Positions 6,677 to 40,456 of a stretch of DNA of 64,000 nucleotides are shown piece after piece (the stretch's first letter is position 1; the number at the start of each line of letters is the position of its first letter). Source of the DNA: Candidatus Latescibacterota bacterium (GTDB lineage: Bacteria > Latescibacterota > UBA2968 > UBA8231). The notes under the pieces were generated by a model. That model made no database searches. It was not told the origin of the DNA and worked only from the letters and a program-made list of their open reading frames with translations. The translations under genes were made by a program, and so were the position numbers. The DNA lies in assembly GCA_965206595.1 (NCBI GenBank), contig OZ242214.1, positions 1,216,001 to 1,280,000 on the forward strand. Direction: 5' to 3'.

Positions 6677-6748
6677 AGCCATTGCCGCCCGCCCTTGTTC
6701 CTTGACTCAAACAGCCGAAAGTCGGTTGCTATTCCGGTCTCCATCCAC

Positions 6749-10216: not shown

Positions 10217-10716
10217 GAAGAATAACGGGCATTATCGTTACTTTGGACGAGGTAGTATGGGCCGAAAATCAGGCAGTGTCGAGGGGCGCCGAGGGGGAGA
10301 GGCTGAATCAGATGGTCTCCCGGTCCATCAATCGGGCGGTCTCGATGGCTCAGAAGGGATTGAATGTCGCTTCCGGGCGCGGTCCTCCCCTACAGAAATC
10401 AGATTATGAGCTCTAAAGGGGCGAATTCGAGCTGGGACTGCGGTGAGCGGCGAGGCGGGGCGATTGGTGGTGGACGAGCGGAAAGACCGACCCCTCCCAG
10501 ATAGGCCCGGATGGATGTATGGTCGGTCAGTGCCGCGAGGATCCGCATGGAGCCGCCACATTCATAACATTTGGTCACATCAATGGCGAACACTCGGGCC
10601 AGAAGTGTTGCCCAGGCCAGACGGTGGGCGCGTTGCTGTGGTAGGATGAGAGCTGCGGCAGTCCCGCACTCGCCCGCCCCACTCTTGGTATCCACGGATC
10701 GGAGAGGGTGACCCAC
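10217..10716 (-). mobile_element. IS91/ISCR-family remnant: transposase C-terminus plus oriIS end
   Basis: WATLLARVFAIDVTKCYECGGSMRILA...GLSARPPPIAPPR is the IS91-type C-terminal Zn ribbon. About 180 nt downstream the sequence ends GCCCGTTATTCTTCCT at the IS110 insertion. Confidence 0.8.
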
Positions 10717-14457: not shown

Positions 14458-14567
14458 ATCTCAGTTCCTCCTCTCAGTTCCTCCCGAACAGACAGCGAAA
14501 AAGTAGATGTGATGCCGGTTGGCGCCCAACAACAACAGATTTCATGTCCTCCGCTACCCGACTGAAA

Positions 14568-14776
14568 GTATAGGAATTATGAAGGGCCCTTTTTATTGCA
14601 TGGTCAAGTAGTGGCGGCACCTCTTCCGCCCTTTTTTCCGCCTAGTAGAACAAGTTCCGGTAGACTGCACACAGAGACACGGTCCTCGAGGACCTGCAGA
14701 CCTTGATGGCCGCTAATGCGACACATAGACGACTTAAACCCTTCACAGCAGACTATTGTCGCAGCACGTCCGGGAA
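14568..14776 (-). mobile_element. 209-bp non-coding repeat, putative IS91-type MITE (uninterrupted copy)
   Basis: About 99% identical to 29900-29905 plus 30684-30886. The minus-strand end GCCCTTCATAATTCCTATAC is oriIS-like, and TTC occurs at both ends. Confidence 0.7.
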
Positions 14777-14899
14777 AGCGATCAATCCCTCCCGCGCCTC
14801 GTCGGTCATGATATCGGGATAGGAGATGTACCCGTCCCGGTGAAAGCTGGCGATCTCCTCCGACGTCGGCCCGCTGCGGCGAAAAAGCGAATTCATCAT
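14777..14899 (-). pseudogene. Phytanoyl-CoA dioxygenase (PhyH) family N-terminal fragment
   Basis: RBS ggagg, then MMNSLFRRSGPTSEEIASFHRDGYISYPDIMTDE. Cut off exactly at the 209-bp repeat. Confidence 0.65.
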
Positions 14900-15268
14900 C
14901 CTCCGCTGTTGGAAAGGGACACTTCCGGCGCGAGCGTCGGCTCGAACGATGATGCGGCGCTGGCGCCTCAGCGCAACTGCATGGCATCCGAATGGTCCAT
15001 CGAGCCGATTGCCGGCCCCGAAGTGAGGCTAATCCACCTCCCGCGCAAACCCGCCTCGATCTGTTCACCAACTCGCCGGTTCCCTATTATCGCACGACGT
15101 ATACCCCTGCCCTCGTCATCGCGTTCCCCGGTAGGGACCCGACGAGGAAAACTGTGCTCGAAGCGCATACAGATCTCCCATCTCGGGGCCGGAGAGGCCG
15201 TGTCGAGAGGTGATTCGGTCTCCAGGCCGCTGGCTTCCGCGGTTCAATCCAGCCTGCAGCGGGCGAGA

Positions 15269-17194
15269 ATGAAATCACCTTTCAGTCTCCAGGGACTCCT
15301 CGTCGGTACCGCCCTCAGCATCGTCATCGGGCTCGTCGCTCCCTATGGGCTCGTGTTCCAGTACTTTCTCATCGGCTTCAACCCATCCTCTCCGGGCGCC
15401 ATCTTCTTCTTTTTCATCCTCACTCTCTTCGTCAACGCCATTCTCGCTCTCATCCGTCGGCATTTTGCCCTCTCCCGCGCCGACCTCGTGCTCATCTACT
15501 GTATGCTGCTGATGGCCGTCACCATGCCCACGTGGGGACTCGGATTCTTCCTCATCGGCACGATGATCTACCCGTACTACTACGCCACACCCGAGAACCG
15601 TTTCGCCGAGCTCTTTCACGATCTCATCCCCACGTGGATGGCGCCCCAGGATATGCACGCTATCGAGTATTTCTACGAGGGGCTTCCGAAAGGAGCCTCC
15701 ATCCCCTGGGGAGCCTGGGCGGAGCCGATGCTCTGGTGGTTTGCCTTCATCACGGCCCTGGGCCTCATGCTCGTATGTATGAGCGCCATTCTGCACCGTC
15801 AGTGGTCGGTCCACGAGCGGCTCACCTATCCGATGGCGCAGCTGCCCCAGAGCATGATCGAAAAAGGGGACAACGCCGCCTCGCTCGTGGCCCCGTTCTT
15901 CAAGAGCAAGGTGATGTGGCTCGGGTTCGCCATTCCCTTCATCTGCTTCAGTTTCACCGGACTGCACCACTTCTTTCCGGTCGTGCCCCCGTTCCCCTTT
16001 TTCCATGACCGCCTCTGGTGGTTCGATCACACCGTGTGGCTCGTCCTCGCCTTCAGCTTCGCCTGGGTCGGATTCTTCTACCTCGCCAACCTCGAGATCT
16101 CCTTCAGCATCTGGTTCTTCTACGTGATGCTCAAGTTCGAGGAAGGAGTCTTCAAAACGCTCGGTATCGCCAGTACCGAGAAACTCAGCTCGTACGAGTA
16201 TTCCCAGCCGGCGGACCTGACCCACCAGGCGACCGGCGCCGTCATCGTCCTCGTGCTCTACGGGCTGTGGATCGCCCGCGTCCATCTGCGCGATGTGCTG
16301 CGCAATGCCTGGAGCCCGGCAACTGGCGTGGACGACAGTGAAGAGCTGCTGAGCTACCGCACCGCCACGGTCGGATTCCTGGCCAGTCTCTTCTTCGTCA
16401 CCGCCTGGCTGTGGCGCTCGGGCGTGCCCGCGCTCGTGCTGCCCGTGCTCGTCGTGGTGAGTCTCATCTTCTTCATCCTCGTGGCCCGCGTCGTCGCCAC
16501 TGCCGGCGTGGCTACCGCGCGCAGCCCCATCGTCCCGGCCTATTTCATCATCTCCGGCTTCGGCACCTCCATACTCGGCTCCCAGGGGCTCATCGCCCTC
16601 AACTTCACCTTCACCTGGCAGGGTGAATCCCGCACCTCGCCGATGGTGGCCTGCTCGAACGGCCTCAAGCTGGCCGAAACGATCCGGGGCCCCAAGGGCC
16701 GCCTCTTCTGGGGTCTCATGATCTCGCTGGTCTGCAGCCTGGGAGCGGCAGTCTACATCTCACTGCATATGGCCTACACCTATGGTGCCGTCAACCTGGA
16801 CGCGCTGGGCACGGTGGGAGGCCACGGCTGGCCCTACATCGGGCCGACCATAATGGAGATGCCGGAGATGAATGTGCGGGGCTGGATATTCAGGGGAATC
16901 GGCGGGCTCGCGGAGGGGTTTCTGGTCTGGGCTCAGCACCGCTGGTTCTGGTGGCCCCTGCACCCCGTCGGCTTCGCCATCGCCGTGGGCTGGCTCACCG
17001 GCCATATCTGGTTCTCGGCGATGATAGCCTGGGGCATCAAACTGATGATTCTGCACTTCTGGGGACCCGGGATGTTCCAGAGTCTGAGACCATTCTTTCT
17101 TGGTCTCATACTGGGCGAGGTTGCCGTGGCCGGATTCTGGGGGGTGATCTATCACTTCACCACCGAGAAGGGCCACTGGCTGACTGTCATGTGA
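15269..17194 (+). CDS. Polytopic membrane protein, DUF6785/DUF6784 (OPT-like putative transporter)
   Basis: Many transmembrane helices. YYYATPEN, QWSVHERLTYPM, WWPLHPVG, RPFFLGLILGE. Probable start is the ATG at 15269, not 14756. Confidence 0.8.
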   Translation: MKSPFSLQGLLVGTALSIVIGLVAPYGLVFQYFLIGFNPSSPGAIFFFFILTLFVNAILALIRRHFALSRADLVLIYCMLLMAVTMPTWGLGFFLIGTMIYPYYYATPENRFAELFHDLIPTWMAPQDMHAIEYFYEGLPKGASIPWGAWAEPMLWWFAFITALGLMLVCMSAILHRQWSVHERLTYPMAQLPQSMIEKGDNAASLVAPFFKSKVMWLGFAIPFICFSFTGLHHFFPVVPPFPFFHDRLWWFDHTVWLVLAFSFAWVGFFYLANLEISFSIWFFYVMLKFEEGVFKTLGIASTEKLSSYEYSQPADLTHQATGAVIVLVLYGLWIARVHLRDVLRNAWSPATGVDDSEELLSYRTATVGFLASLFFVTAWLWRSGVPALVLPVLVVVSLIFFILVARVVATAGVATARSPIVPAYFIISGFGTSILGSQGLIALNFTFTWQGESRTSPMVACSNGLKLAETIRGPKGRLFWGLMISLVCSLGAAVYISLHMAYTYGAVNLDALGTVGGHGWPYIGPTIMEMPEMNVRGWIFRGIGGLAEGFLVWAQHRWFWWPLHPVGFAIAVGWLTGHIWFSAMIAWGIKLMILHFWGPGMFQSLRPFFLGLILGEVAVAGFWGVIYHFTTEKGHWLTVM

Positions 17195-17725: not shown

Positions 17726-17791
17726 GGGATGATTCTCCTCGAGCCACGCACGGCGACCTCGCCGTTTCGCAGATCGCCCATGGACAATCCT

Positions 17792-18870
17792 CTATGCCTT
17801 CTCGAGGAACTCCCACAGCGCATTGAAGCGAGCGCCAGTGATCGGCTCGGTCCGCAAGCTCGAGGGCATGTCTTTTTCGCGGGTGGCGTCGGACATGTAG
17901 GTGGGAGCAAATTCGAGAGACTTGCGCAGACTCATCCCTGCTGACCCCGATCTCACCGGGGCGCCAGCGCACCTTGCATACGTCGAGCCAACCTGTGATG
18001 GTTTCGGTGTCGTCTTCGCAGTGCCATGCGACGACGACCGCTGCAAAAGCGACAAACTCGCCGTGGATCCAGCCCCTGCCGTTGACTTCCTCTGCGCCAA
18101 GCCAAAGGGCATGATCGGAGGCTGGAGCTGCCGGGTGCCGGAGGCTTTTCGCGTCCCGGTCCTGGAGGGTTTTCACATTCAGGCGAATGCTGTCCGCCGT
18201 CAGGTCTCCGTCCGAGTTCAGGGTCGCGGGGAACTCCGTGACGATATGGTGGAAATACTCAAGTAACGGCGATGGCAGACTCATCAAAGGGCTCACCGAT
18301 GCCGAGCCTGGTGCTCCGCCGCCATTCACAGAATCCGGCGTATCCGCAGAGCACGTCGCCGAGTCCCGCGGTGTTCAGATAGTAGGGGGCCTGCAGCACG
18401 AGATCGCAATCGATTACGACATGGTCAAAGTCGATCCAGGGCCACGTGCTGCTGGGGCCGATGGTCTTGTGGCCGTCCCACTTGGCGAAAATGCTGTGGA
18501 TGATAGCGCCGGTCGAGACGATCGTCGGGACCAGCACGAGCGGTATCCCCGTCTTCAGGGCGACGTACTTGGACGCGTCGAGCGCTATCCCCCCTCCAAT
18601 CCCGACGATCAGCTCAACTCCGTCTGGTAGCTTGTCAGTGATGTTTTGAAGGTGCGCCCAGTCCAACAATCGAGCGTATTCGACCCCGTTGGGCTCTCGG
18701 GCCAGGTGAGGGCGTGCTGCGTTGTATGCGCTGGGCGAGCTGACCGCAAAGTAGGCCGGCCAGTCGCCGCTCTCCTGATTGAGAAGGCCGCTGCCGCAGC
18801 GAATATCATGCTCGAGTGCGGTCTTACTGTCCTCGGTTCCTCCGCTCCAGCTCCCACGCGGGTTGTCCAT
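17792..18870 (-). pseudogene. Glycerol-1-phosphate dehydrogenase-like gene, frameshifted (copy 2, inverted)
   Basis: Highly similar to 5598-6676. Frameshifts near 18262 and 17931. Confidence 0.75.
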
Positions 18871-19142
18871 GATTGTGCTCCTCCAAGAAGGCAGCAGCCA
18901 GCGCCGCTACGTCCCGACGCGCTATTTGTCCGTCGTACAGGCTCTGTCGGCACTGAGTTCCCGGGTCATTTCCGAACCCCAGCGACCGTGAAACCGGCTC
19001 TCCCGTAGAATGCAATTGCACGCATATCTGTTGAGTGTACTCCACCCGGCAAGATGATGCGAGATCGGTAGAAATGGCGAGCAGCCAACTCTATCCCAGC
19101 TTTCAACCAAACTATCTAAAATGCCCTACCGAGGAGTAGATA

Positions 19143-19565
19143 ATGCCCAGACGATTCCAAAGAAAACGAACTGAGGGCTGGAGAATGCCGGAGGGTGCCG
19201 TCTATGTCGGCCGCCCTACCAAGTGGGGTAACCAATTCACCGGTCCTCGTCATGTCGCCGTGGCCAATTATCGCAAGTGGATGAACGAACCTCAGTGGCA
19301 ACAGCTCCGAGAGGCAGCCAAGCGCGAACTCCGCGGCAAGGACCTCGTGTGCTGGTGTCCGCTGGATCAGCCATGCCACGCGTGTACTGAGTGTACTGCT
19401 GGAAATAGCAAACAAACACTAATACGACAAGCTGGCTGTACCGACCTGAAGGACCTAGCTCCGACCGATCAGCTCATCGAGATGCCTCAGCGAAATCGCT
19501 ACCAACTCTCGTCTCGTGGAGAAGCTCTACTGGTAATGCTGAACACAGCCAATTGGGACGCGTAG
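19143..19565 (+). pseudogene. DUF4326 domain protein (phage/plasmid-associated), C-terminus frameshifted
   Basis: YVGRPTKWGN.F and LRGKDLVCWCP...CHA. The expected VLLEIAN ending lies in another frame after a tgtactg duplication near 19384-19399. Confidence 0.7.
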
Positions 19566-19583
19566 CCTTCGAAGCTGAGTCAA

Positions 19584-21131
19584 CCCTCTGGTTGCATAAA
19601 AACAGGGCATTTTTCATCTCTGAACTGCCACACTTCACTTGCGGCGTCTCTGAAAATGGGGTATTGATGATGTCGACCAAGACATTTATCGACCCCTTCC
19701 AGGAGGACACCGCAAGTGAAGTGTAGCAAACAAGCCATTTTAGCCCGTTTTCACAAGCTCCCACGTCTTCGCTTCGAGGATCAACAGCTTACCTCCTTTG
19801 CCGGAACGATTGTTTTTCAACTCCTCTTCCAGCGCCTGGATCTCAAGGCTCGACTGAAGCCATGCTTCCCCGCCAAGAGCTCAGCGATCTTTGGTCCCCA
19901 TCTCATTGTAATGTGGCTCATCTTGCATCTGCTGCTGGGCTTCCGGCGGCTGCGCGACGTCGATTATTACCGGGACGATCCCGTGGTACTGCGCTTGTTG
20001 GGCGTACGTCGCCTGCCGGATGTGGCCACCGTCAGTCGCACGCTGGCGAAAATGGGCCCTTCCAGTGTCGAAAAAGTGCGCCACCTGTCTTCGACCTTGG
20101 TGGTGCAAGCGCTCCGGCGCGAACGCTGTCCTCGCCTGACCCTCGACTTCGACGGCTCGGTGTCCTCCACTTGTGGTCATGCCGAAGGTACCGCGGTCGG
20201 CTACCATCCCAAGAAAAAAGGGGCGCGCAGCTACTACACTCTGTTTTGCACGGTGGCCCAAACCGGTCAATTCTTCGATGTCCTTCACCGGCCCGGCAAC
20301 GTCCATGACAGCAAGGACGCTCATGAATTCATGATGAACGTTTTCGATCGCGTGGGCGACGAACTGGCGCACCCCGTGCTCGAGTCCCGACTGGACAGCG
20401 CCTTCTTCAGCCACCACACGCTTACCCTCATGGACCTGTATGGCGTCGGATGCACGATCAGTGTCCCTTGCGAACGCTTTGCGCTACTCAAGGACAAAAT
20501 CGAGGCGCGCCAGCGCTGGTGCTATCTCGATGAGCAATGCTCCTATTTCGAGAGGGACTGGAAACCCAAAAGCTGGCCGGCCTCGTACCGGTTTCTCTTC
20601 GTCGCGCCGTAGGGTACAGCGCCAGACCAAGGAAGCGCTGCAACTGGATCTGTTCGAACCCCGAGCATTCGATCACGAGTACCGCGTTGTGGTTACCAAC
20701 AAGCCGAGCTCGGCACGTAGCGTGCTCCTCTTCCACTATGGCCGCGGCGCTCAGGAAGGGATCTTCGCCGAGGCCAAGCAACAGGCCGGGCTGGATCTGA
20801 TCCCCACCCGACGGCTGCTCGGAAACCGAATGGTTACTTTGGGTGCGATGATGGCCCACAACCTGGGGCGCGAAATGCAGATGCTGGCGCAGGCGCGATC
20901 CAACTATTCGCGTGGCAAACGGCCGGCGGCGTGGACCTTCCAGACCCTGGGCACCTTGCGTCAGCGCTTCCTGCATCGCGCCGGGCGTCTCACTCAGCCC
21001 AAGGGCGAGTTGACCCTGACCATGAACTCGAATCCAAAAATCGAAAAAGATCTGTTGCATTTTCTCGATACACTGAAGGATGCGGCCTGATCACAACCAC
21101 CTCCTTCAAGCTGATTTATGCAACGTTAGGG
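19584..21131 (+). mobile_element. IS1380-family insertion sequence
   Basis: TIRs ccctctggttgcataaa / ccctaacgttgcataaa (14/17). Flanking duplication is TCAA, or GTCAAC if the ends are taken 1 nt inward. Confidence 0.9.
19716..21090 (+). pseudogene. IS1380-family DDE transposase, frameshift near 20605
   Basis: LTSFAG, TLDFDGS, RPGNVH, RLDSAFF, YGRGAQEGIFAEAK, split over two frames. Confidence 0.85.
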
Positions 21132-21351
21132 TCAACTATGGTCCCAATCAATATTCAGATCGATGAGTAGATTTGACCAACATGGAAGCTCAGACCGTTC
21201 GGATTACCGATCTGAACGACCATTCTTCATCTGCACAGATCGTGTTGACATGGTTCTGACGGCGCCATAGTATGCCGAGCGGATACGGATAGCTCGCTGA
21301 GAGACTGTGCTCGTGAGCTCCTCGTGCATTTCAAGCGAGCGGAGGGAAACC

Positions 21352-23946
21352 ATGGCAGACACCCTGAGAAGCGTCAACACATTGTTGAGAAGACCACCGT
21401 CGAGGTTTGCAACAGCACTGATGCCGCTCGCTGTCGTCGGTGTATTGGTACTGTCTCCCCTTGTCACGCCAGCCGCCGCTCGAACGGAGGCATTTGAAGT
21501 CGGTGATGCCAACAAAGACCAGCTGCCAACCGGCAAGGAGGCTGACGGCATACTCGGCGACTTCGTGATGCGGAACGACCTGATCGAAGCGACTATCTCA
21601 GGCGATCTGCCAAGACGCAAGGCAAATATAGGCGCGTTTTGGGCTGCCATCACACCAGGCTGCGTGTATGATCTCTCCGTACGAGGTTCCAGAAACGACC
21701 AACTCACCCTGTTCTCCCCGTCTTTCCAGCAAGGGGATGTCAATTATGTCCGAATCCTGGATGATGGGAAGTCTGGCAAAGCAAGCATTGAGACGGTCGT
21801 ATCTGCGGCCAGGAACAGTGGTCTCTACAAGCGCCATCTCTATCACCTCCAGGATGGCTGGCGAGGCCTTCTAATCGAGACGACCCTGCGCAACGAAGCC
21901 GATTCGACCCACCGAGTCGGCACGGAGGACCGGCTCGAAGATTTTCAGGCCGATGACCGCAACGTGGGTGAAAATACTGTCATCTACATTACTGATCCGG
22001 CGGACAAGGCGGGGTACGCATTCGGTTGGGTCGCTGAAGCGCCGGTCGATACACTGGAGCTGCTGCCCGGTCAGGAGGTCACCTACAAGCGTTTTCTGGC
22101 CGTCGGCACATCTCCCGCAGAGGCATACGGACTGGTGGTCCAGCGCCAGGGCGAATTCGGCACTGTTTCGGGTGTGATTGTCGGACCCAGCGGGAAAGGC
22201 GTACCGACGGCACACATCGAGATAACAAGCGACGACGACACACTGGCAGCCTATCCCGATGCTGACGGCAGGTTCAATTTTGCACTGCGACCGGGATCAT
22301 ACGATTTCCTAGTGACGGACGTGGGACGAGCGGAGGTACGTCAATCGTTGGCGCTAATCTCCGGTGAGGTCCGATCGCTGAGTTTTGAGATGGACCGGGC
22401 CTCCACCGTCGTCCTAGACATTCGCGATGAGGACGGCAGGAGCATCCCCTGTAAGGTCCAATTCATTGGCATTGAGGGCAACGAGTCACCCGATCTGGGA
22501 CCCAGCACAAGGGCGCACGGGTGTCTCGACCAGTATCACTCGGAGACTGGTCGGTTCGAAGTGCAGGTTCCGCCGGGAGATTACCGCGTCCTGGTAACCC
22601 GCGGCATCGAGTTCGGCCATCTCGAGAAGGAGATACAACTGCGTCCGGGTCGCACCGAGAAAATTCGGGGTTTACTCCGCCGGCTCGTGGACACAGAAGG
22701 TTGGGTCAGTACCGACTTCCACAACCACTCGACGCCCAGCGGCGACAATGTGACCAACTCCCGCGACCGCGTAATCAACCTGGCGGCAGAGCACATAGAA
22801 TTCGCGCCAACAACCGAGCACAATCGGCTCTACGATTGGCAGCCGTTCATAGACGAGCTGGGTCTGGCGGACGAGATTGTGACGATCCCTGGCCTCGAGA
22901 TGACCTTGGCGGGTGCTCACCTCAACGCCTTCCCATTTGTACCGGACCCGTACGCTCAGGATGGGGGAGCTCCGGAATGGCAGTTTGATCCTCGGATCAA
23001 CGCCATCGTGCTGCGCGATTTTCAGCGTTCGTGGGAAGACCTCATGCCGGAGCGATGGGTCCACCTCAACCACCCGAACATGTCGTTGGATTTTGTCGAC
23101 CGGGATAAGGACGGTCGAGAAGATGGCGGCTACCGCGGGTTGGCTGTATTGATTGACGGGGCCGAGGTGTGCGGCAATTGGGAGGTGTGGGGTGAGGACA
23201 TACTGGCTCGTTCACCGTGGCGAGTCGTGACTCGAGACGAGGAGGAGGAAGTGCGGCATCGTCGCGAGTTCATCTGGCTGCAATTGCTCAATCGCGGTCA
23301 TCGTTATACCGCCATCGCAGTATCCGACGCACATACGATCCACGGTAACGGCGTCGGCGGCTGGAGAACATACATTACTAGCAGCAGCGATCGACCGGCC
23401 GATATCGACTGGAAAGAGGTCGTAGGCAATGCCAAAGCCGGTCAGGCTCTGATCACCAACGGTCCCTTCCTCAGGGTCGAGACGGTCGACGGTACGTTGC
23501 CGGGAGGCAGTGCGCGAGCGCAGGGATCAATCGCACTGCGTATCGAGGTACAGTGCACTGACTGGATCGACATCGACCGCGTCCAGATCCTCGTCAACGG
23601 CCGGCAGCACCCAGATCTCAACTTCACGAAGGAATCTCATCGCGACTGGTTCAGCGATGGCGTGGTGAAATTCAACCGAGTCATCGACGTACCCCTAAGT
23701 CAAGACAGTCATATAATCATTGTCGCTACGGGCGAAAACTCGGATCTGTCGGTTGGGTACGGCAGCAGTTGGCAGGCACGGATGAAGCCGGTGGCCTACA
23801 CGAATCCGATCTGGGTCGATGTGGACGGAGGCGGATTCGTGCCTAACGGGGATGATCTCGGTTGGGACTTGCCAGTAATGGAGAAGACGGTGGAGGAAGT
23901 ACGCAAGATGCTTGAAGCCGCCGGGCTGGACGATTCTGGCGTCTAG
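21352..23946 (+). CDS. CehA/McbA-like PHP-domain metallohydrolase with carboxypeptidase-regulatory-like domains, secreted
   Basis: DFHNHSTPSGD, TEHN, GLE, HLN, LNHP, VSDAH, YTNPIWVDVDG. RBS ggaggg. Confidence 0.82.
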   Translation: MADTLRSVNTLLRRPPSRFATALMPLAVVGVLVLSPLVTPAAARTEAFEVGDANKDQLPTGKEADGILGDFVMRNDLIEATISGDLPRRKANIGAFWAAITPGCVYDLSVRGSRNDQLTLFSPSFQQGDVNYVRILDDGKSGKASIETVVSAARNSGLYKRHLYHLQDGWRGLLIETTLRNEADSTHRVGTEDRLEDFQADDRNVGENTVIYITDPADKAGYAFGWVAEAPVDTLELLPGQEVTYKRFLAVGTSPAEAYGLVVQRQGEFGTVSGVIVGPSGKGVPTAHIEITSDDDTLAAYPDADGRFNFALRPGSYDFLVTDVGRAEVRQSLALISGEVRSLSFEMDRASTVVLDIRDEDGRSIPCKVQFIGIEGNESPDLGPSTRAHGCLDQYHSETGRFEVQVPPGDYRVLVTRGIEFGHLEKEIQLRPGRTEKIRGLLRRLVDTEGWVSTDFHNHSTPSGDNVTNSRDRVINLAAEHIEFAPTTEHNRLYDWQPFIDELGLADEIVTIPGLEMTLAGAHLNAFPFVPDPYAQDGGAPEWQFDPRINAIVLRDFQRSWEDLMPERWVHLNHPNMSLDFVDRDKDGREDGGYRGLAVLIDGAEVCGNWEVWGEDILARSPWRVVTRDEEEEVRHRREFIWLQLLNRGHRYTAIAVSDAHTIHGNGVGGWRTYITSSSDRPADIDWKEVVGNAKAGQALITNGPFLRVETVDGTLPGGSARAQGSIALRIEVQCTDWIDIDRVQILVNGRQHPDLNFTKESHRDWFSDGVVKFNRVIDVPLSQDSHIIIVATGENSDLSVGYGSSWQARMKPVAYTNPIWVDVDGGGFVPNGDDLGWDLPVMEKTVEEVRKMLEAAGLDDSGV

Positions 23947-24137
23947 CAGGCAACGCGCGCAATCACCGCGGATACTGACGAGGGTGTCGTCAGATTCGGT
24001 AAACGACAGCCCTATCGAAGCTTTCTCTGAGTCTCATGACTCAGGGAGTTGGTCAAACTTCACGAGTTCTTGGTAGTAGAGATATCCAACGTCCCTGCGC
24101 ATCAAACCGTGCAACTGGCGCCATCCTGGAGGATCGC

Positions 24138-26075
24138 ATGGAGAGAATCACCGCCACGGTACCCGTCATCACCCCGCCCTCATGGGCTGTCCAGCAGCGT
24201 CTCCTGCTGCAGACCGTGGAAAGATCGGCCCTTCCCTTCTGGGATCGGTACGTGCGCGACGACGGCGAGCTATACTGGGACGAGAGTTTCGGCGGCGTCA
24301 GCCCCGACGATTATGGTTTCGGCGGCAGCAGCCCCGACGATTTCTACGAGGCGTTCGACAGCTGGCCCCTCGTCTACCTGATGGGGGGTGGCGACCATCT
24401 GCTGGAGATGGCGCATCTCGGCTGGGAAGGCGTGACGCGACTGCTCACCCGCTGCGGTGCGGTGCACAAGGAGTACGCCCGGTGCGAAGACCAGTTCCAC
24501 CAGTCGGAGAGCGACATCTTCTTCTACCACCTGTGCATGGCCGATCCGGCCAATGCCAGCCTCGCCATACGGGCGCGACGCTTCGCCGGATTCTACCTGA
24601 ACGAGGATCCCGAAGCGATCAACTACGATCGCGAGCACCGGATCATCCTGTCGCCGTTCAACGGCTCGGGTGGCGCTCGCCAGACACCGACTGACGCGCA
24701 GCCGCACCCGTTTCGCGCGCGCGAGAACTACGGTCTGCCCACGTACGAACTACCCGACATCCAGAGCTGGAAGGACACGCAGGACGACGAAAAGGCGAGG
24801 CGTGTGGGCGAAGTCATGCACGGACGCTGGTACAGAGGGGACGTGGCCGCCAACCTCGCGATCTCGAGTCTGGTCACGAACGCCTTCCTGCTCACCGGCG
24901 AGGAGAAGTATCGCGACTGGGTTGTCGAGTACACCGACGCATGGATCGAGCGGGCGCGGGCCAACGACGGGTTGATCCCGGACAACGTCGGTCACTCCGG
25001 GGAGGTGGGGGAATACATCGACGGCAAGTGGCACGGCGGATTCTACGGCTGGACGCTCTATCACGGCTGGTACAACCTGCAGATGACGGTGACCGTCGCA
25101 GCCGCCAACGCCTATCTGCTGACGCGGGACAACCGCTACCTGGAATTTCCGCGGCGTCAGATGGACCGGATACTCGAGCTGGGGCAGATTCGCGATGTCC
25201 GGCGCGAGCACATGAGTCTGAGGCACCACTGGATCGGCCAGTTCACGGCCATGGGCGATCGGACGGAGACCTTGCTGGTGCCGTACCGTTACGGCGACGC
25301 CGGTTGGTTCGACTGGCAGCCCCCTTCACCCGTCTTCCTCGCAGCGCTTTGGAACCTGTCGATGGCTGACGAGGATTGGCAGCGCATCGAGCGCGTGCGC
25401 GAAGCCGAGGCCTACGACTGGAATGCCGTAATCTCCTACCGTACCAAGGAGGATTCCGGTCACGAGCAACCCTGGCTGCGTTTCCTGGCCGGCGCCAACC
25501 CGGACTATCCCGAATGCATCCTGCAGGCCAGCTACCAGCAGGTGGCCTGGCGCCTCGCCCTCGTTCGGGCCGAGACCGAAGTCGGCACCCATCACGACGT
25601 CCACCGCTGGCAAGACACGGACCCGGTTTCGTCCGAGGCCCTCATCCAGCTGACCCTCGGCGCCCCGCAGCCGATCTACAACGGCGGCCTCCTCCACTGC
25701 CGGTTGCGCTACTTCGACTGTGGGGCCAAACGCCCGGGGCTACCCAAGGATGTCGCCGCCCTGGTCGAAAAGGTGGAGGCCGGCCGCACCGTGGTCCGCC
25801 TCGTCAATCTCAACCCGCAATGGGACCGCGAGCTGATCGTGCAGGCCGGCGGCTACGGAGAGCACCGGTTCACGGACGCGGAGTACGACGCGATGACGAG
25901 CCCCTATCCGGGGCCCGCCAATCGCTATGCGCCCGAACCGATCACGACCGCAAAGCGCAGGGCCGCCGTGAACGGCAAGCATCTGCAGGTGGCGCTGCCG
26001 GCCGGGACAGAGATGATCCTTGAGCTGGGTACGCAGCGCTACGTGAACGAACCTGCCAGCGCCGGCCCTTTCTGA
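24138..26075 (+). CDS. Conserved hypothetical protein, 645 aa (copy 2)
   Basis: RBS ggagg. Near-identical to 6783-8720. Confidence 0.78.
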   Translation: MERITATVPVITPPSWAVQQRLLLQTVERSALPFWDRYVRDDGELYWDESFGGVSPDDYGFGGSSPDDFYEAFDSWPLVYLMGGGDHLLEMAHLGWEGVTRLLTRCGAVHKEYARCEDQFHQSESDIFFYHLCMADPANASLAIRARRFAGFYLNEDPEAINYDREHRIILSPFNGSGGARQTPTDAQPHPFRARENYGLPTYELPDIQSWKDTQDDEKARRVGEVMHGRWYRGDVAANLAISSLVTNAFLLTGEEKYRDWVVEYTDAWIERARANDGLIPDNVGHSGEVGEYIDGKWHGGFYGWTLYHGWYNLQMTVTVAAANAYLLTRDNRYLEFPRRQMDRILELGQIRDVRREHMSLRHHWIGQFTAMGDRTETLLVPYRYGDAGWFDWQPPSPVFLAALWNLSMADEDWQRIERVREAEAYDWNAVISYRTKEDSGHEQPWLRFLAGANPDYPECILQASYQQVAWRLALVRAETEVGTHHDVHRWQDTDPVSSEALIQLTLGAPQPIYNGGLLHCRLRYFDCGAKRPGLPKDVAALVEKVEAGRTVVRLVNLNPQWDRELIVQAGGYGEHRFTDAEYDAMTSPYPGPANRYAPEPITTAKRRAAVNGKHLQVALPAGTEMILELGTQRYVNEPASAGPF

Positions 26076-26085
26076 CTCGCGCCCG

Positions 26086-26370
26086 CTACTTCCTCTTCTC
26101 AACCAGCTCGATCTCGTAGTTGTCGGGGTCGGTGACGAAGGCCATCCGTCGCCCGTCCTTGAACTTCTCTCGCCAGCCGTCGGGCCAGATCTCCAGACCC
26201 TCTTTCTCCAACCGGTCGCAATACGCGATCAGGTCGTCGACGCCGATGCAGGTGTGGATGAGGTCTTCCGGCACTTCCGGTTTGTAGTCGGACTCGGCGA
26301 ACTCCAGCGCGAAATCGTTGCCGGGCAGTTCGAGAAAGGCCAGGCGGTTGCCGGCCGGAGACGACGTCGA
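26086..26370 (-). pseudogene. VOC/glyoxalase family protein, N-terminus missing
   Basis: HTCIGVDDL...MAFVTDPDNYEIELV. Confidence 0.7.
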
Positions 26371-26371
26371 G

Positions 26372-26685
26372 CCCTTCGGTATCAGCGAGTCAGCGAACCG
26401 ATCGCTCCGGAGAGCTTCCAGCCTCACAGTCTGCTGAACACTTGGGAGAATATCTACGCCGATTGGTCGTCGGAGGAGCTGCAGTACTACTGGAAGAAGT
26501 GAGACCTCGAAGTCGCGGAATACGACAGCAGCTACTACGACAGGCGCGATGAACTAGCTTTCGAGATGGCGGGAGAGGGGGATGAAACGGCGCGATCGGC
26601 TCTACAGCGCGTCGTGGCGCGGAGCGAGGACGCGGGGAAGCGGAAACGGGCGGAAGAGCTGCTGGCGAAGCTCGACTCAGCGTGA
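26372..26685 (+). pseudogene. PhyH-like dioxygenase C-terminal fragment with internal stop
   Basis: LRYQRVSEPI...TWENIYADW...QYYWKK*DLEVAEYD...ARSALQRVVAR continues in frame across the TGA at 26500-26502. Confidence 0.5.
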
Positions 26686-26694
26686 GTGGGCGAT

Positions 26695-27260
26695 GGGCTC
26701 ATGACCTTCCACGATCCCTCAGGAACCTCGATGCGGAGGATGTCGTGCTGGTGAGGAGAGAGGACGCGGATAGAAACCGGATCGATCGTATCGCCGCCGT
26801 CGACGCGACCGAGAACGGTGCAGACGTGCCGATCGAGGAGGGCTCGACCCGTGTTGGGGCGCTAGAAGCCGTCGTGCGGCCCTTCGACGACGTGTTCCCA
26901 CAGACGGATGCACCGGCCTGCGAAATCGGGGTTCTCCGCCACGACGGCCCCACAAGCGGAGCCTGACGGGTAGGATCCTTCGTCGTAGAGGATAACTTTC
27001 ATGTCGAGAGAAGCGGCTTCCTCTACGACGCGGCGGACGAGTCGGAAGTACTCGTCGGTGAGGTAGCCCACGCGGCGGGAGAGGCCGATTCGCGCGTGGG
27101 GCATGACGCCGCCGAACCCCGCTTCGTGAAACGCACGGAGCTGGCGAATCAGCTCATTTTCTTCAAGGTCGTCGTTCCAGAACCAGAAGGGGATGATGCC
27201 GAACTCGCGCGGCGGATCGAGGAAGGTTTTAAAGGCTTCGTCGAGACTCATGGAACCCAT
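26695..27260 (-). pseudogene. Glycoside hydrolase (GH106 alpha-L-rhamnosidase-like) N-terminal fragment
   Basis: PFWFWND, GFGGVMPHARIG, ILYDEGSYPSGSACG. In-frame TAG at 26862, then truncation. Confidence 0.75.
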
Positions 27261-27346
27261 TCAACGCAGAGGACGCGGAGAGCGCAGAGGGTAGGCAGGG
27301 GGTGCGCCCACCTGGACTTGGCGGTTCGAGTAGTGGGGTGGTTGCG

Positions 27347-28768
27347 TCATTCGGACGTGGCCCAGCGTTGGCGGAGGGCGTCGCCCCACTCGATCACTCT
27401 GTCACGAGGACTGCCGTCACGAAGCGGTTGCCGAACCAGTCTGCTTTCGTGTTCGAGAAGTTTCGCTCGACACGATGCAACGGCGTCCGCAAACTCGGGT
27501 TCCGAGGCGATGTTCTTCGTCTCCCACGGGTCGTTGTCGAGATCGAACAGCTGCTCCAGGCCGAGGGCGTCGGGGTCCGGTCCTGGAGGGATGAAGTCCT
27601 CGGGTTCCTTCGGCCTGTACTCGGTGACGTACTTGAACCGCCCGGTGATGATCGCACGGCCCCAGTAGTTGCTCTCCACGTAGGCATAGTCGGGCCAGTC
27701 TGAGGCACCCCTCTCGAGGAGGGGACGCAGGCTTCTGCCTTGCACATCGTCAGGCGCGTCGACAGCTGCGTAGTCGAGGACGGTTGGGAGGAGGTCGACG
27801 CCCGACACGAAGTGCTCCCGGTCGAATCGCCCGCTTCCCACGTCCAGACGATCGCCAAGGGTTGCGACGATGGTGGGCACGCGGATGCTCTCTTCGTAAA
27901 GCGCGAACTTCTGGAATGTCCGGTGCTGTCCGTTAGCTTCGCCGTGGTCGGCCATGAAGATGATCAGCGTGTTGTCCCGGAAGGAACTCTTTTCCAGGGC
28001 ATTGAGGATCAGGCCGATCTGCTGATCCGCCATTTCTGTGAATCGGGCGTGGTTCCACGCCAGAAAGCGCCATTGCTGGTCTGTCCAGTCAGCGATTCCG
28101 TTGAGGATCCGATGATGGATGAGCGGCTGTTGGCCGCGGCGGAAAACCTGTTGGACGACCGTCTCTCGTTCGTCGTAATCGAAGTTATCGGGCAGGGGCG
28201 GGAGGTCGTTTTCGGAGAAACCCTGCTCTTCGGGTCCGGGGATCGTCTTGACTTCGTGATTGTGCTCGTACTCGCAGATGTCGTGGGGGTTGACGAGGCC
28301 GATCTGAAGGTAGAACGGGTTCTCTGAGTCCCGCCGGTCGAGGAAGTCGATCAGCGCGTGGGTGGAGACGCGATCGTAGTACTCTCCGCCCCCGGCAGCG
28401 ATGTCCCACTTGCCCGTGTAGAGGTTCTGGAAGCTGTCCCGCATGGGTCGCCCGCCGATGTGCCACTTCCCGCAATGAACGGCGTCGTAGTCGCTTCGGT
28501 TTAAGACCTGGCCGAGGTCGGGGATGTCCTCGTGCATCAGGCCGCTGTTGAAGCAGACACCGTTCTCGGACGTGTAGCGTCCCGTCATCCAGCTGGCGCG
28601 AGAGGCCGAGCAGACTGGATCGGCACAGTAGCTACGCATGAAGCTGGTCCCGTTCCGGTGCAGGCGATCCATGTGAGGCGTTCGGACGTGAGGATGCCCG
28701 TAGGCCGATACGACGTTCCACGTCTGTTGATCGGTGTTGATAAAGAGAATATTCGGCCGGTCCATCAC
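27347..28768 (-). CDS. Formylglycine-dependent sulfatase
   Basis: PNILFINTDQ, CSASRASWMTG (CxAxR), GKWH, ADHG, YEESIRVP, LFDLDNDPWE. Confidence 0.92.
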   Translation of the reverse strand: MMDRPNILFINTDQQTWNVVSAYGHPHVRTPHMDRLHRNGTSFMRSYCADPVCSASRASWMTGRYTSENGVCFNSGLMHEDIPDLGQVLNRSDYDAVHCGKWHIGGRPMRDSFQNLYTGKWDIAAGGGEYYDRVSTHALIDFLDRRDSENPFYLQIGLVNPHDICEYEHNHEVKTIPGPEEQGFSENDLPPLPDNFDYDERETVVQQVFRRGQQPLIHHRILNGIADWTDQQWRFLAWNHARFTEMADQQIGLILNALEKSSFRDNTLIIFMADHGEANGQHRTFQKFALYEESIRVPTIVATLGDRLDVGSGRFDREHFVSGVDLLPTVLDYAAVDAPDDVQGRSLRPLLERGASDWPDYAYVESNYWGRAIITGRFKYVTEYRPKEPEDFIPPGPDPDALGLEQLFDLDNDPWETKNIASEPEFADAVASCRAKLLEHESRLVRQPLRDGSPRDRVIEWGDALRQRWATSE

Positions 28769-29514
28769 GCCCCTCGCTCGCAGAGGACGTAGGTGGAGAA
28801 CATCGTGGAGACGAGGGCGACGTCACCGGACTCGGTCACCCACCAGTAGGAGGGTGGGAGCCCCTCACCGGAGAGCACGTATCCAGTCAACACGTGCGAT
28901 TCGAACGTCCACGTTTCGAGGGGGTGGATTCGACAGCCGAGCTTGAGCGTTTCGAGGTCTTCGAGAACGGAGAGTCCGCCGACTCTTTCGGTCATTGCAG
29001 GGAGGATGTCGACAAGTGCCCAGATGGTCGTAACGGGGGAGTGGGGCGGCACCTCACCTGCGCCGAACGAGCGTCCTCGTTGGGTTGTGAGTGAAATCGT
29101 CGATTCCTCGAGCGATCCCCGCCAGTCGACTTCGTTGTAGATACCATCGGCGCTGTTGTGTGCCTGGATGCGCCAGGGGCTGCGGAGCGGTCGTAGTGGT
29201 TCGTCTCCGCAAGTGAAGTCGAGGATGAGGCGCTCGCCGCTCGGGGTGTTTTCGTGCGTGACGTGGTAGCGCCAGTCGGCTTCCGTTCGTGTTCGCTCGA
29301 TGACGAGCGAGCCGATGCCAAAATCCGGGCTGTGGCCCCGGTTGAATCCACACCAGAAATTGGGCAGGATGGTGTAGCGATGCGTCTTCGACGTCGCGTC
29401 CGGATCGACGGGTGTGGAGGAGAGGGCCTGGGCCAAAGGTTGAGCGAGCTCAGACCGGACGCCCCAGTGATCCGTCTGGTCGGTGTAATCAACGCTCCAG
29501 TGCAGGTCGTTCAT
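28765..29514 (-). CDS. Hypothetical protein
   Basis: 249-aa ORF whose stop codon overlaps the sulfatase start. Confidence 0.6.
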   Translation of the reverse strand: MNDLHWSVDYTDQTDHWGVRSELAQPLAQALSSTPVDPDATSKTHRYTILPNFWCGFNRGHSPDFGIGSLVIERTRTEADWRYHVTHENTPSGERLILDFTCGDEPLRPLRSPWRIQAHNSADGIYNEVDWRGSLEESTISLTTQRGRSFGAGEVPPHSPVTTIWALVDILPAMTERVGGLSVLEDLETLKLGCRIHPLETWTFESHVLTGYVLSGEGLPPSYWWVTESGDVALVSTMFSTYVLCERGA

Positions 29515-29638
29515 CAGGAAGGCAGGGCTCAGAGTTCAGAGTTCAGGAAGACCTGTACACCATCAGATTGATAAGGCGCGAGATTGGACCCAATGGTGCG
29601 CTCAGGACGGTGAAGAATACGTAGGCTGGTAGGACCGT

Positions 29639-29896
29639 TCACAAGGGTTCGAGCTCGCCCAGCATGGTGGGGACGAGCTCGGATACTGTCGGGTGGATGT
29701 GCATGGCCCGCTGGATGACCGTGTACGGCGCCTTCGCGTACATGACGTCGAGGAGCGCGTGAACGACTTCGTCTCCGTTGATACCCAGGATGGCCGCGCC
29801 CAGGATCTCCTCGGAGTCGGCGTCGACGAACACCTTCATGAAGCCGTCGGTTTCGCTTCGCTCCTTGGCGCGTCCCACATCGGCCATCATCCGTTT
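29639..29896 (-). pseudogene. Pyridine nucleotide-disulfide oxidoreductase (mercuric reductase-like) C-terminal dimerisation fragment
   Basis: VGRAKERSETDGFMKVFVDA...ILGAAILG...HIHPTVSE. Begins at the oriIS end of the 209-bp repeat. Confidence 0.8.
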
Positions 29897-29918
29897 GAAG
29901 TATAGACAAGCGGTAACA

Positions 29919-29924
29919 TGTAAA
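29919..29924 (-). promoter_or_regulatory. -35 hexamer (TTTACA) of the IS110 circle-junction promoter
   Basis: Joining the two ends at the CT core gives TTTACA-N17-TATAAT. Confidence 0.75.
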
Positions 29925-30388
29925 TCCCGATCGCGGGCAAATATCTGTTCTCCGTTTAGTTGAGGATAGGGGTGTAGGGACGATTGTTTTTAAGGACGCT
30001 GAAGACAACGTGGAGCATCTTGTTGGCGACGTGGGTGAGGGCGACGAGGTGATGCTTGCCGCGGTCGATTTGCCGTTGATAGACCTGGACAAACAGCGGA
30101 TCATGGCTTTTGAAGACGGCGATCTCCGAGGCCTGCATGACGGCGGTGCGCAGATAGCGACTGCCGCGCTTGGACATCCTGCCGCAGCCGACCTGATCGC
30201 CGCTGTCGATCTGCTTGACGTCGATACCGGCGGGGGACTGTCCCGTTTCGGTGAGCCGTTGACGCAGCAGTTCAACCCCTTCGCGAGAGTGCTGCACGGC
30301 GAGATTTCGGAAGACGGTCTGCCCGTCCTGACCCAACAACGTGGCGCGATGACTTCGTTTCGCCACATCGATACCGAGAGTCCACATT

Positions 30389-30667
30389 CGGCGAGCTCCT
30401 TGGCCAAGAGACCGAAGCTGCCCACGATCGGGGTAACATCAGCTGACACATCCTCGTAGCCAGATCAGGGAACCGATGTCCCGTCAAGCGGTAAGTGCAT
30501 GTGCTGGCGCGTATGGCGGTCTATACGAGAGGATCGAGCCTCGAGGAACGAATAGCCAACCCCAGCAGCTTCGCTGATCCAGGATACCTCACTGGCATCA
30601 AAAAGCAAGCACAGGAAGTACGCAGCTGGTCGCTGTCTCGCGGGGCCAGACCCAGCTGAAGTGGCCT
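30389..30667 (-). ncRNA. Putative IS110 bridge RNA (copy B)
   Basis: Target-binding loop at about 30514-30558 and donor-binding loop at about 30437-30509, with guides matching the flank and the end junction. Confidence 0.78.
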
Positions 30668-30673
30668 GCACCT

Positions 30674-30679
30674 ATTATA
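30674..30679 (-). promoter_or_regulatory. -10 hexamer (TATAAT) of the IS110 circle-junction promoter
   Basis: Perfect TATAAT 2 nt inside the core. Conserved in copy A (10207-10212). Confidence 0.78.
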
Positions 30680-30683
30680 CGAG

Positions 30684-30886
30684 GAATTATGAAGGGCCTT
30701 TTTTATTGCATGGTCAAGTAGTGGCGGCACCTCTTCCGCCCTTTTTTCCGCCTAGTAGAACAAGTTCAGGTAGACTGCACACAGAGACACGGTCCTCGAG
30801 GACCTGCAGACCTTGATGGCCGCTAATGCGACACATAGACGACTTAAACCCTTCACAGCAGACTATTGTCGCAGCACGTCCGGGAA
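30684..30886 (-). mobile_element. 209-bp IS91-type MITE, copy interrupted by IS110
   Basis: Near-identical to 14574-14776. Its last bases (gtatag) lie on the far side of the IS110 at 29900-29905. Confidence 0.7.
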
Positions 30887-30959
30887 GCCCAGATATTACG
30901 CCACGGGCCACGGTATGGACTCAGGGTCGTGGTTACTGGCACCAAGAGTCTCTTCCAGA

Positions 30960-31242
30960 CCTTCGCGGACGCCCCTCGATCACCGACTCCCTGACGGTGA
31001 TGTCCAGGTCTCTCAAGGGGATGAATTTGCCTCGAATGGGAATGGCCATGACCCTTCTTCGAGTGGCCAATGGGACGACCTGCACTGTCTCGTCGGCCGG
31101 CATGCCCCCGGTGATGGTCTACCGATCTGAGGCCGGCGAAGTGGACGAGATCGAACTGTCCGGTTATCCACTTGGCGTGGAAGGTCGCCCCCAGGACGAC
31201 GACATCACGCTGGTCGTGCTGAAGGTGACTCCCGACTTGTGA
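30960..31242 (+). pseudogene. SpoIIE/PP2C-like phosphatase fragment
   Basis: SSAGMPPVMVYR...GYPLGV joined directly to QDDDITLVVLKV (internal deletion). Confidence 0.65.
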
Positions 31243-39209: not shown

Positions 39210-40340
39210 TTAGGCGGCCTTTCTGACTGTGCTGCCCGGTTGTTTGAGCTCCCAGGCGATGGCCCAGATGAAACCCAACAGGTCGCGCGCAACGGCGGTG
39301 CAGACCTTGTTCTTCGGCATCCCTCGCGCCGTCAACCGGCGGGATAGCGTCCACACAGTCGTTTCTGCGCCTTCCAGGCGATCGCCTGTACCGCCGGGGT
39401 CGTCTGCTCGGCTCGCCGCTGCAGGTGCGCGGTCTTGCGGGCCGGAAACCGATTAGCTCCAAGCCGCTTCGGCCAGCACCCGCCGCACGTGGGCATTGCC
39501 CGCCTTGGTAATCGCACCCCGCTGCCGGCGACGGCCGCTGGAATGCTCGCTGGGCACCAGACCGACGAAGGCCATCAGCTGGCGCGGCGAATCAAAGCGG
39601 GTGAGGTCCCCCAGTTCCGCCAAGGTCGTGATCGCGGTCAGCGTGTTCACCCCGCGCAGCGCCATGATGGCGCGGGTCTCGGCTTCCCGCGACCAGCCCG
39701 ACAGGGTGCGCTGCAATTCCTCGTCCAGCCCCTTGACGCGAGCCTGGGCTTGGCGCACCGCGTCGACGTATTCCTCAAAGACGATCTGCTGGGCCGGAGG
39801 ATCGAAGCGCTGCCTCTCGAGCCAGCGAAAGTGGCTCTGCGTCCAGCGACCGCGACCCGAGTAGATGCGACCGTGGCGCTGCAAGAAGCTGGTCAGCCGT
39901 TGGCGCACGCGGCGCTCGGCATGCTTGAAGTCTTCCCGGCAGCGCTCCAGATCGCGCATCGCCTCCTGCTCCGGGTCAGGCACCCACACCACGGTCAGCT
40001 CGCCGTGTCGGTGCAGCCGCGCCAGCGTCATCGCATCCCGCCGATCGGTCTTGATGCGGTCGCCCGGACGCCGCGGAATCAGCGACGGCGCCACCACCAT
40101 GCACGCGTGACCCAACGCGGTCAGCAGCCGGTAGACGCCGTAGCCGCAGGGGCCGGCTTCGTAGCAAAACCGCAACTGCGTCGATGCATCGGCCAACGTG
40201 CCCGCCAGCTTGGCCACCGCTTCGCCCGTGGAGGCGATGGTACCGTACAGCCTCGGCTCGGTCCGATACGGATCGGCAATGGCGACGGTGATGGAATCCC
40301 GGTGTATGTCCAACGCTACCACTTTCGTAGGTTTACGCAT
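39210..40340 (-). pseudogene. IS110-family transposase, frameshifted near the C-terminus
   Basis: ALDIHRD, CYEAGPCG, KTDRRDA, GLVPSEHSSG, ITKAGNAHVR. Indels near 39454 and 39340. Confidence 0.88.
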
Positions 40341-40456
40341 GGCCTCCTCCTTCTCGCTGGGGATAGGTCTTTGGGTGAACTGCATTTGTCCAAAGATAAC
40401 CCCCGAAAATCGAGACTGGAGGAGGTCTTCATATACGCGTCAATACATAAGGTCTA

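Follow-up and report, generated by a model that had tools for sequence, protein, structure and literature searches.

Does the short IS110-group element that lies on the minus strand at positions 29904-30683 of the DNA analysed here (64,000 nucleotides (nt) of contig OZ242214.1 from a Candidatus Latescibacterota bacterium, called the window below) encode a working RNA-guided recombinase with a specificity of its own, or is it what remains of one? A first-pass annotation, made from the letters alone, had read its non-coding left end as a complete bridge RNA of the kind described, together with its recombinase, for IS621 (passages of Durrant et al. 2024, PMC11208160; PDB 8wt6), and had proposed a new natural RNA-guided recombinase specificity. 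The analysis reported here, for which 29 related copies were gathered from the genomes of relatives and from metagenomes, favours the second answer. The element, named W1, is with a probability of about 0.85 a fossil, i.e. a non-autonomous IS110-group copy that keeps its bridge-RNA gene and has lost most of its recombinase. At the level of the family, all the sequence-testable traits by which IS110-group elements and IS621-type bridge RNAs are defined are present. Features of the window are on the minus strand unless another strand is given.

The ends of W1 and the promoter formed by joining them

Counting one copy of the CT core at each end (30683-30682 and 29905-29904), W1 is about 779-780 nt long, as compared with 1526-1577 nt in 12 fuller relatives. 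Its non-coding left end (30388-30681, ~294 nt, from CGTATAAT to the ATG) is 88% identical to that of W2, another copy in the window, and the alignment reveals few differences from the intact relative L043. The non-coding right end (29906-29955, ~50 nt) terminates in the left donor TTACCGCTTGT, followed by CT. A long left end, a short right end, the lack of long terminal inverted repeats and a 2-nt core, here CT, repeated at both junctions are traits of the IS110 group. The seekRNA elements of the IS1111 group share with W1 the recombinase superfamily and the RNA-guided logic. In the IS1111 group, according to passages of PMC11208160, the RNA comes from a long right end and long subterminal inverted repeats are present, unlike in W1, whose long left and short right ends therefore place it in the IS110 group.

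The first-pass annotation had fixed these ends by means of a matching site without an insertion, at 14566-14581, and all the coordinates and motifs that it gave for the element are present on the minus strand. The ends were confirmed independently by the relatives. The right ends of 18 of them all terminate in ...CCGCTTG(G)T-CT (with W1 included, all 19 finish in ...T-CT), and one decayed copy (L051, in genome G102, ~1282-1710) preserves a fossil junction in which the last 16 nt of a right end (TGTTTACCGCTTGTCT) directly adjoin a left end; the latter is reduced to 411 nt, and unrelated DNA surrounds the whole. This junction implies that a joined form, either a circle or a tandem, once existed as DNA. 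The left junction is CT in 26 of the 29 tabulated copies; L023 has TT, L003 is ambiguous, and in L051 the flank is the right-end fragment just mentioned.

When the two ends of W1 are joined, a -35 box from the right end (TTTACA, 29919-29924) is followed by 15 nt running through the core, CG, and a -10 box from the left end (TATAAT, 30674-30679, conserved in the left-end alignment), so that the spacer measures 17 nt, as annotated. With W1 counted, 19 copies have a right end, and the -35 position reads TTGAC in 16 of them, CTGAC in two and TTTACA in W1. A junction promoter pointing into the left end is thus predicted by sequence criteria in W1 as well as in its relatives. Four sequencing runs yielded neither joints nor circle junctions; since the data consisted entirely of contigs, this absence is uninformative.

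A conserved RNA core with two internal loops

The bridge-RNA core of W1 occupies 159 nt (30414-30572) and is closed by a long-range stem of 8 bp, in which GAAGCUGC (30572-30565) pairs with GCAGCUUC (30421-30414). Two loops are enclosed by this stem. The target-binding loop consists of a 5′ side (30543-30557) containing the left target guide (LTG) UUCGUUCCU at 30552-30544, a hairpin (GAGGC/AUCCUC, 30529-30542) in which two pairs show compensatory changes in relatives, and a 3′ side (30521-30528) with the right target guide (RTG) GUAUAG at 30526-30521. The donor-binding loop has its left donor guide (LDG), UUACCGCUUG at 30494-30485, in the 5′ side (30483-30494) and its right donor guide (RDG), UACGAG at 30458-30453, in the 3′ side (30450-30467).

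A consensus structure was obtained with RNAalifold from an alignment (A1) of 20 distinct left ends. Truncated or decayed copies (L003, L023, L034, L036, L040 and L048), duplicates (L028, L044 and L045) and L030, for which no junction was found, were left out of A1; A2 omitted L021, whose core is identical to that of L019. In the consensus, the target module comprises the stem UGGGGUU/GACCGCC, an internal loop and the GAGGC hairpin, while the donor module comprises the stems CGCCAG/CUGGCG and GCAC/GUGC, an internal loop and a GGGA/UCCC hairpin, with a small extra hairpin after it. The LTG and RTG columns are unpaired, and the target guides are accordingly not buried in stems. For the donor loop the consensus neither supports nor refutes such burial: some LDG positions are paired by RNAalifold with the opposite, 3′ strand of the loop, all in invariant columns. 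These LDG pairs were omitted from the curated structure, which contains 37 pairs. Its pairs are formed in 99.6% of 738 cells, as compared with 37.9-51.4% when the partners are slid by 1-3 columns. Changes on both sides of a pair occur in 3 of the 37 pairs (16 cells), a covariation score that none of 500 shuffles reached; 23 of the 37 pairs never vary and are therefore uninformative. Across the alignment the columns of the target loop are variable and those of the donor loop invariant, a contrast also found, according to passages of PMC11208160, among the relatives of IS621, in which the first RNA loop is variable and the second conserved.

W1 itself carries four private changes at columns that are invariant in the other 19 left ends, and three of these fall in stems: a G>A at 30534 breaks a pair of the target hairpin, a C·A mismatch lies in the outer stem of the donor module, and one further pair has become G·U.

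Guide segments change with the flanking target sequences

In W1, the guides agree with target and donor to different degrees. The RTG is complementary to CTATAC at all six positions including the core (4/5 over the five non-core positions scored), the LDG is identical at 10 of 10 positions to the right end (29916-29907), and the RDG is complementary at six of six positions to the CT plus CGTA of the left junction; each of these pairings had been annotated and was recovered. The 10-mer TTACCGCTTG occurs three times in the window (W1 loop, W1 right end and W2 loop), with 0.03 occurrences expected, and at least three were obtained in none of 100 shuffles. The LTG, described in the annotation as resembling the left target plus core, is present where it was placed; its match to the left target ATAATTCCT amounts to only 6/9 with the core and 4/7 outside it.

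Guide and flank letters of the 29 copies were taken by alignment column, automatic hairpin finding having been dropped because several registers were mis-set. Rows were also dropped for L033, L047 and L055 (pattern match without left-end homology), L038 (left junction misaligned) and L048 (84 nt upstream), and the left-target test left out L051, whose flank is a right-end fragment, and L023, whose hairpin is damaged. Over the seven non-core positions of the left target, 20 unique cognate pairs of flank and LTG gave a mean of 4.7 matches, as compared with 3.0 for 374 non-cognate pairs, and 0 of 20,000 shuffles reached the cognate mean. Over the five non-core positions on the right, 18 unique pairs gave 3.44 versus 2.20 for non-cognate pairs, again reached by 0 of 20,000 shuffles. 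The left match is complete (7/7, or 9/9 with the core) in L013, L014 and L030, and matched pairs on the right include GGAUAG/CTATCC (L023), GCUUAG/CTAAGC (L019), GCAAAG/CTTTGC (L046) and CGUAUAG/CTATACG (L043). As far as sequence comparison can tell, this is, at the family level, the guide-flank pattern that defines bridge RNAs. The order LTG, RTG, LDG and RDG around a CT core, as first annotated, is upheld by this covariation among relatives and by the consensus fold.

The same observations bear on whether the left end might be a mere 5′ untranslated region and promoter with subterminal repeats bound by the recombinase, its guide-like matches being end repeats plus chance. The identity between the LDG and the right end is a direct repeat of the end sequence that never varies, as subterminal binding sites would behave; the 6-nt matches are individually weak, and the single-sequence fold is not unusually stable. 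Against this, the segments of the target loop change with the flanks on both sides of the insertion, which protein-binding repeats would not do, the surrounding stems are kept through compensatory changes, and the recombinase is homologous to those of IS621 and ISCro4, whose RNA mechanism is solved. We consider this explanation extremely improbable.

Several observations nevertheless weigh against reading W1 as a fossil that carries a bridge-RNA gene. The copies are related and some share homologous target sites, and since they are not independent the shuffle counts overstate significance. The LDG and RDG are invariant across the family with one exception (L013, in which a right donor CGCA accompanies an RDG UGCG), which leaves donor pairing essentially without support from covariation. 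Compensatory change is confined to the three pairs noted above, which is attributable to the high conservation of the core. The fold of the W1 sequence by itself (-101.7 kcal/mol, z = 0.18) was equalled or exceeded in stability by 112 of 200 shuffles; being uninformative, it was set aside in favour of the alignment. A search of 29500-31100 with Rfam 15 (E up to 10) returned only a chance DnaX match inside the open reading frame (ORF), and is uninformative on bridge RNA. The RNA evidence consists of two short contigs, one from each of two RNA libraries among the four runs, and such libraries can contain DNA: a 161-nt contig (X18) identical to 30193-30353, and a 194-nt contig (X19), 90-95% alike and from a relative, that covers 30375-30565, almost exactly the RNA core. 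As the contigs show neither ends nor strand, they give only a hint of expression. Uncovered stretches in RNA runs were not taken as evidence, and RNA runs with a small share say nothing on habitat. Finally, the LTG of W1, with its 4/7 matches outside the core, is at background (the non-cognate mean being 3.0), which means that the insertion of W1 is not explained by full guide matching.

The misfit on the left extends to a sub-lineage formed by W1, L012 and L043, whose LTGs are nearly the same (UAU[U/A]CGU[U/G]CCU) and meet three different left targets with 4/7, 2/7 and 1/7 matches, respectively. On the right the same elements score 4/5, 3/5 and 5/5, and two of the three have intact recombinases. 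An alternative LTG register, with a 1-nt bulge or shift set by eye, improved the match for L021, L043 and partly L012; it did not do so for W1 and was not adopted. Because the LTG of the sub-lineage misfits its left targets while the RTG fits, it is conceivable that some bridge recombinases choose their sites by the right half-site, the core and a conserved feature of the flank, that the left guide is partly dispensable, and that W1, which lacks a recombinase and retains both donor halves and the RNA gene, would be a candidate for mobilisation in trans. The flank feature in question would be the GGGCC-TTAT-type motif with TTGAC ~30 nt upstream, common to all left flanks. Half-match recombination, as well as compact and expanded natural IS110 elements, is the subject of passages in two preprints (Hu et al. 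2026, 10.64898/2026.08.14.744561; Xie et al. 2026, 10.64898/2026.08.31.748434). We rate such targeting in the present family as unlikely.

The left flanks of family members from different organisms are alike over ~50 nt, and consist of TTGAC, ~30 nt, the GGGCC-TTAT-type motif and the core; the right flanks are alike over ~9 nt only (CTAWMCKTT). This likeness across organisms suggests that the family may target a conserved repeated sequence. In L003 the ORF upstream of the element (922-1380) contains a Zn_Tnp_IS91 domain (1.1e-14), and several other upstream ORFs may be tails of IS91-type transposases, which would make the end of an IS91-family element a candidate for the target. The ORF upstream of W2 had no Pfam match, and the genome of W1 and W2 has 19 Y2_Tnp matches, not one of which adjoins either copy.

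The recombinase gene of W1 is a remnant

The recombinase ORF of W1 (29956-30387) encodes 143 amino acids (aa), in which residues 1-57 of the 396-aa protein of L043 (82% identity) are fused in frame to residues 306-396 (92%). Alignment to relatives shows that ~760 bp are gone and that the deletion joins two similar short stretches. Residues ~58-305 of 396 are thereby absent, and with them the segments around the motifs MEATG and TDSADA, which, by homology with IS621, hold three of the four DEDD residues. In Pfam, the first 49 residues of the W1 product correspond to positions 1-49 of 155 of DEDD_Tnp_IS110, and residues 53-104 to positions 38-87 of 87 of Transposase_20, while the intact L043 protein contains both domains in full (PF01548, 5.7e-40, positions 1-155 of 155; PF02371, 6.1e-18). 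A complete recombinase gene with all catalytic residues is therefore not found in W1. Family members with intact recombinases are L012, L019, L021, L027, L041 and L043, and the five genes translated specify proteins of 395-396 aa. Among solved structures, the L043 protein best matches the ISCro4 transposase (PDB 9t56, 1.4e-17), which has the same two-domain layout at low identity and was compared by protein only; the IS621 transposase follows (4.2e-17).

No intact cognate recombinase was found elsewhere in the genome of origin, a single contig of 7.05 Mb that is 92.9% complete. The search returned the three broken copies of the family described below and two unrelated IS110-family genes with 29-31% identity. 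In the window, an unrelated IS110-family ORF of 310 aa lies at ~39453-40385 (DEDD_Tnp, 1.2e-15; ~31% over 88 residues to the family recombinase), next to a 224-aa ORF that resembles a DDE transposase.

The genome contains three copies of the left end (W1, W2 and one at 6.29 Mb), all of them broken. W2 (9307-10216) is a second, independently inserted and decayed copy with an in-frame stop and a 3′ truncation. Its left flank (TTATTCTTC-CT) and its target guides (right guide GGAUAG) differ from those of W1, and its 3′ end abuts a 455-nt duplicate, 100% identical, of 27149-27603, the 3′ end of a sulfatase gene. A copy identical to W2, with the same flank, is present in genome G101 (L015). The copy at 6.29 Mb has lost the RDG and the N-terminus and contains frameshifts. 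The deletion form seen in W1 occurs only once in the genome. Different internal deletions are found in L014 (genome G103), an element of 1291 nt, and in L023 (genome G105), in which the distance from the donor guide to the right end is 871 nt, versus ~1340 nt in full elements; decay by internal deletion thus recurs in the family.

Might W1 still be part of a functional bridge-recombinase system with a new specificity, either on its own or as a miniature element that a helper recombinase mobilises in trans? It has kept both ends with their CT cores, each half of the promoter and the four guide segments; the reading frame runs on across the deletion, and the X18 contig, from an RNA library, is identical to a segment of W1. 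According to passages of the preprint by Hu et al. (2026), IS110 elements of ~800-843 bp were found to be active, and bridge RNA may be able to act in trans. The size of W1, ~780 bp, is within the range of these smallest elements, and its locus, like those in the reports on compact and half-match elements, is shaped by duplications, with a poor left half-site and a matched right one. Unlike W1, however, the 843-bp element encodes, according to the same passages, a complete recombinase of 201 aa, whereas the W1 ORF is the deletion product of a 396-aa protein, and the preprint passages report no activity for truncated recombinases. The missing catalytic stretches, the lack of an intact cognate in the genome, the single occurrence of the deletion form, the three private stem-weakening changes and the weaker -35 box also speak against function. 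In addition, a search of the genome for the target predicted by the W1 guides gave no site at 0-1 mismatches and five at two mismatches versus nine for the reversed control, which is chance level. A functional system is, in our judgement, improbable. The new specificity that had been proposed is not upheld, given a recombinase reduced to a 143-aa remnant without an intact cognate and an LTG that fits no better than non-cognate guides.

It could also be asked whether, once the recombinase was gone, the host retained the W1 bridge-RNA gene for an independent regulatory RNA. The RNA core has suffered far less than the ORF, a TTGACC in the flank upstream makes read-in transcription conceivable, and the X19 contig from a relative covers the core. 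However, the private substitutions fall in stems, other genera show no sign of a conserved W1 at the corresponding place, the locus is pieced together from gene fragments, and a recent deletion is the simpler account. To this possibility we attach hardly any credence, less than to any other considered here. Taken together, the deleted gene, the missing helper, the substitutions in stems and the weaker -35 box make W1 best read as a fossil.

W1 lies in a mosaic of duplicated segments

The site at 14566-14581, CATAATTC-CT-ATACTT, lies in an intergenic region between the genes at 13225-14457 (-) and 14756-17194 (+). In the annotation it served as the empty site of W1; its sequence is as given and it does fix the ends of the element, but it is an unoccupied paralogue and not an allele of the same locus. 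The left flank of W1 (30684-30886) is a copy of intergenic 14574-14776, and together with the CT core (30682-30683) it forms a 205-nt repeat (30682-30886 versus 14572-14776, 99% identity) of which only two copies exist genome-wide. Beyond the right end of W1, only the right target ATACTT (29903-29898), part of the same duplicated block, is common to the paralogous site. From the first base after ATACTT, a truncated oxidoreductase gene aligns in seven relatives: 29639-29890 (-) retains 83-88 codons, with Pyr_redox_dim, from the 3′ end of a pyridine nucleotide-disulphide oxidoreductase gene, which is intact in those seven and of which the 5′ three-quarters are nowhere in the genome of origin. 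Since the shared side extends over 205 nt plus ATACTT only, with homology to the oxidoreductase starting immediately after, a block of ~211 nt carrying W1 was duplicated or moved.

The surroundings have a similar character. The regions 5541-10219 and 17790-30686 form a mosaic of segmental duplications, in which 6748-8853 matches 24103-26208 (97.2%), 8852-9306 equals 27149-27603 (100%) and 5541-6678 is inverted with respect to 17790-18928 (94.7%). The blocks 6748-8853 and 8852-9306 and the pair W2/W1 are colinear, which gives the impression that one region is a condensed version of the other. On the other side of W1, an ORF at 30826-31242 (+), which starts inside the duplicated 205-nt block, covers only positions 45-109 of the 192 of a SpoIIE phosphatase domain and adds a further gene fragment to the locus. 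A repeat of ~1.5 kb at 19583-21133, with copies of 99-99.7% identity at three other places in the genome and copies of ~79% elsewhere, is presumably another insertion sequence.

Distribution of the family

The protein search found relatives in 8 of 168 genomes of the phylum. The exact donor-loop pattern was present at 12 places in 7 of the 168 genomes and in 23 metagenome contigs. Of 151 genomes sampled from the phylum, 8 contain a match to a covariance model of the RNA core (R1), which had W1 among its training sequences, and every one of the 8 belongs to the taxonomic family of the window; in the genome of origin the model recovered the three known copies only (W2, 166.9 bits; W1, 158.9 bits; third copy, 72.1 bits). 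Two weak matches, both at 1501-1623, lack the target loop (L080, 40.3 bits) or the donor loop (L078, 31.8 bits) and are probably remnants. Members of the family occur in the taxonomic family of the window and in marine and other metagenome contigs. A literature search pairing Latescibacter* with IS110 found nothing, and the supplementary bridge-RNA lists of PMC11208160 may already hold the family. Papers that combine non-autonomous elements with IS110 and bridge RNA do not, going by their search entries, deal with this family.

Discussion

The intact members are 1.53-1.58 kb long and encode a recombinase of 395-396 aa with DEDD and Tnp domains. From the anatomy, conservation, structural support, guide-flank covariation and state of the gene we infer the transcription, the RNA-guided recombination and the order of events as follows. 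Excision would join the right and left ends, creating a promoter of the form TTGACA-N17-TATAAT that would transcribe the left end; the folded core of ~160 nt would then present its two internal loops. The first would pair with the target (the left target plus CT on the bottom strand, CT plus the right target on the top strand) and the second with the element's own joined ends, whereupon the recombinase would exchange strands at the CT core. W1, or an ancestor of it, may have inserted in this way at a CATAATTC-CT-ATACTT site. It would then have lost ~760 bp of its recombinase gene by deletion between the two similar short stretches, gained the substitutions that weaken its stems and its -35 box, and finally been carried along in a rearrangement of a ~1-kb block.

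This scheme is close to that of IS621, as set out in passages of PMC11208160. There, too, a long left end is combined with a short right end, a sigma-70-type promoter is rebuilt across the junction of right and left ends, and the RNA begins with a 5′ region, after which come two stem-loops with internal loops, of which the first is variable and the second conserved; the CT core and a recombinase with DEDD and Tnp domains are likewise shared. Unlike in IS621, an extra long-range stem of 8 bp encloses both loops in the present family, a small hairpin follows the donor loop, a single base separates the 10-nt LDG match from the core, and the donor hairpin is not preceded by CU. The family recombinase is also distant (E = 4e-17, over two stretches) and longer (396 aa versus a chain of 328 aa), and in W1 it is deleted. 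These differences are variations within the diversity described by Durrant et al. The passages of that paper state that bridge RNAs are predicted in 85.7% of the IS110-group elements in ISfinder, which makes W1 a further member and not a new kind.

W1 itself matters little, being a dead copy of an element type for which the RNA-guided mechanism has been known since 2024. It did lead to a small, previously unnamed family that has intact recombinases of 395-396 aa, and that offers clear natural covariation between guide and target together with a bridge RNA in which a long-range stem clamps the two loops together. The misfit of the left guide in the sub-lineage of W1, L012 and L043 bears on the question of how much of the guide is needed; if half-match targeting were true there, it would be natural evidence that the left guide is partly dispensable. 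The members of the family are candidates for inclusion in surveys of bridge-recombinase diversity.

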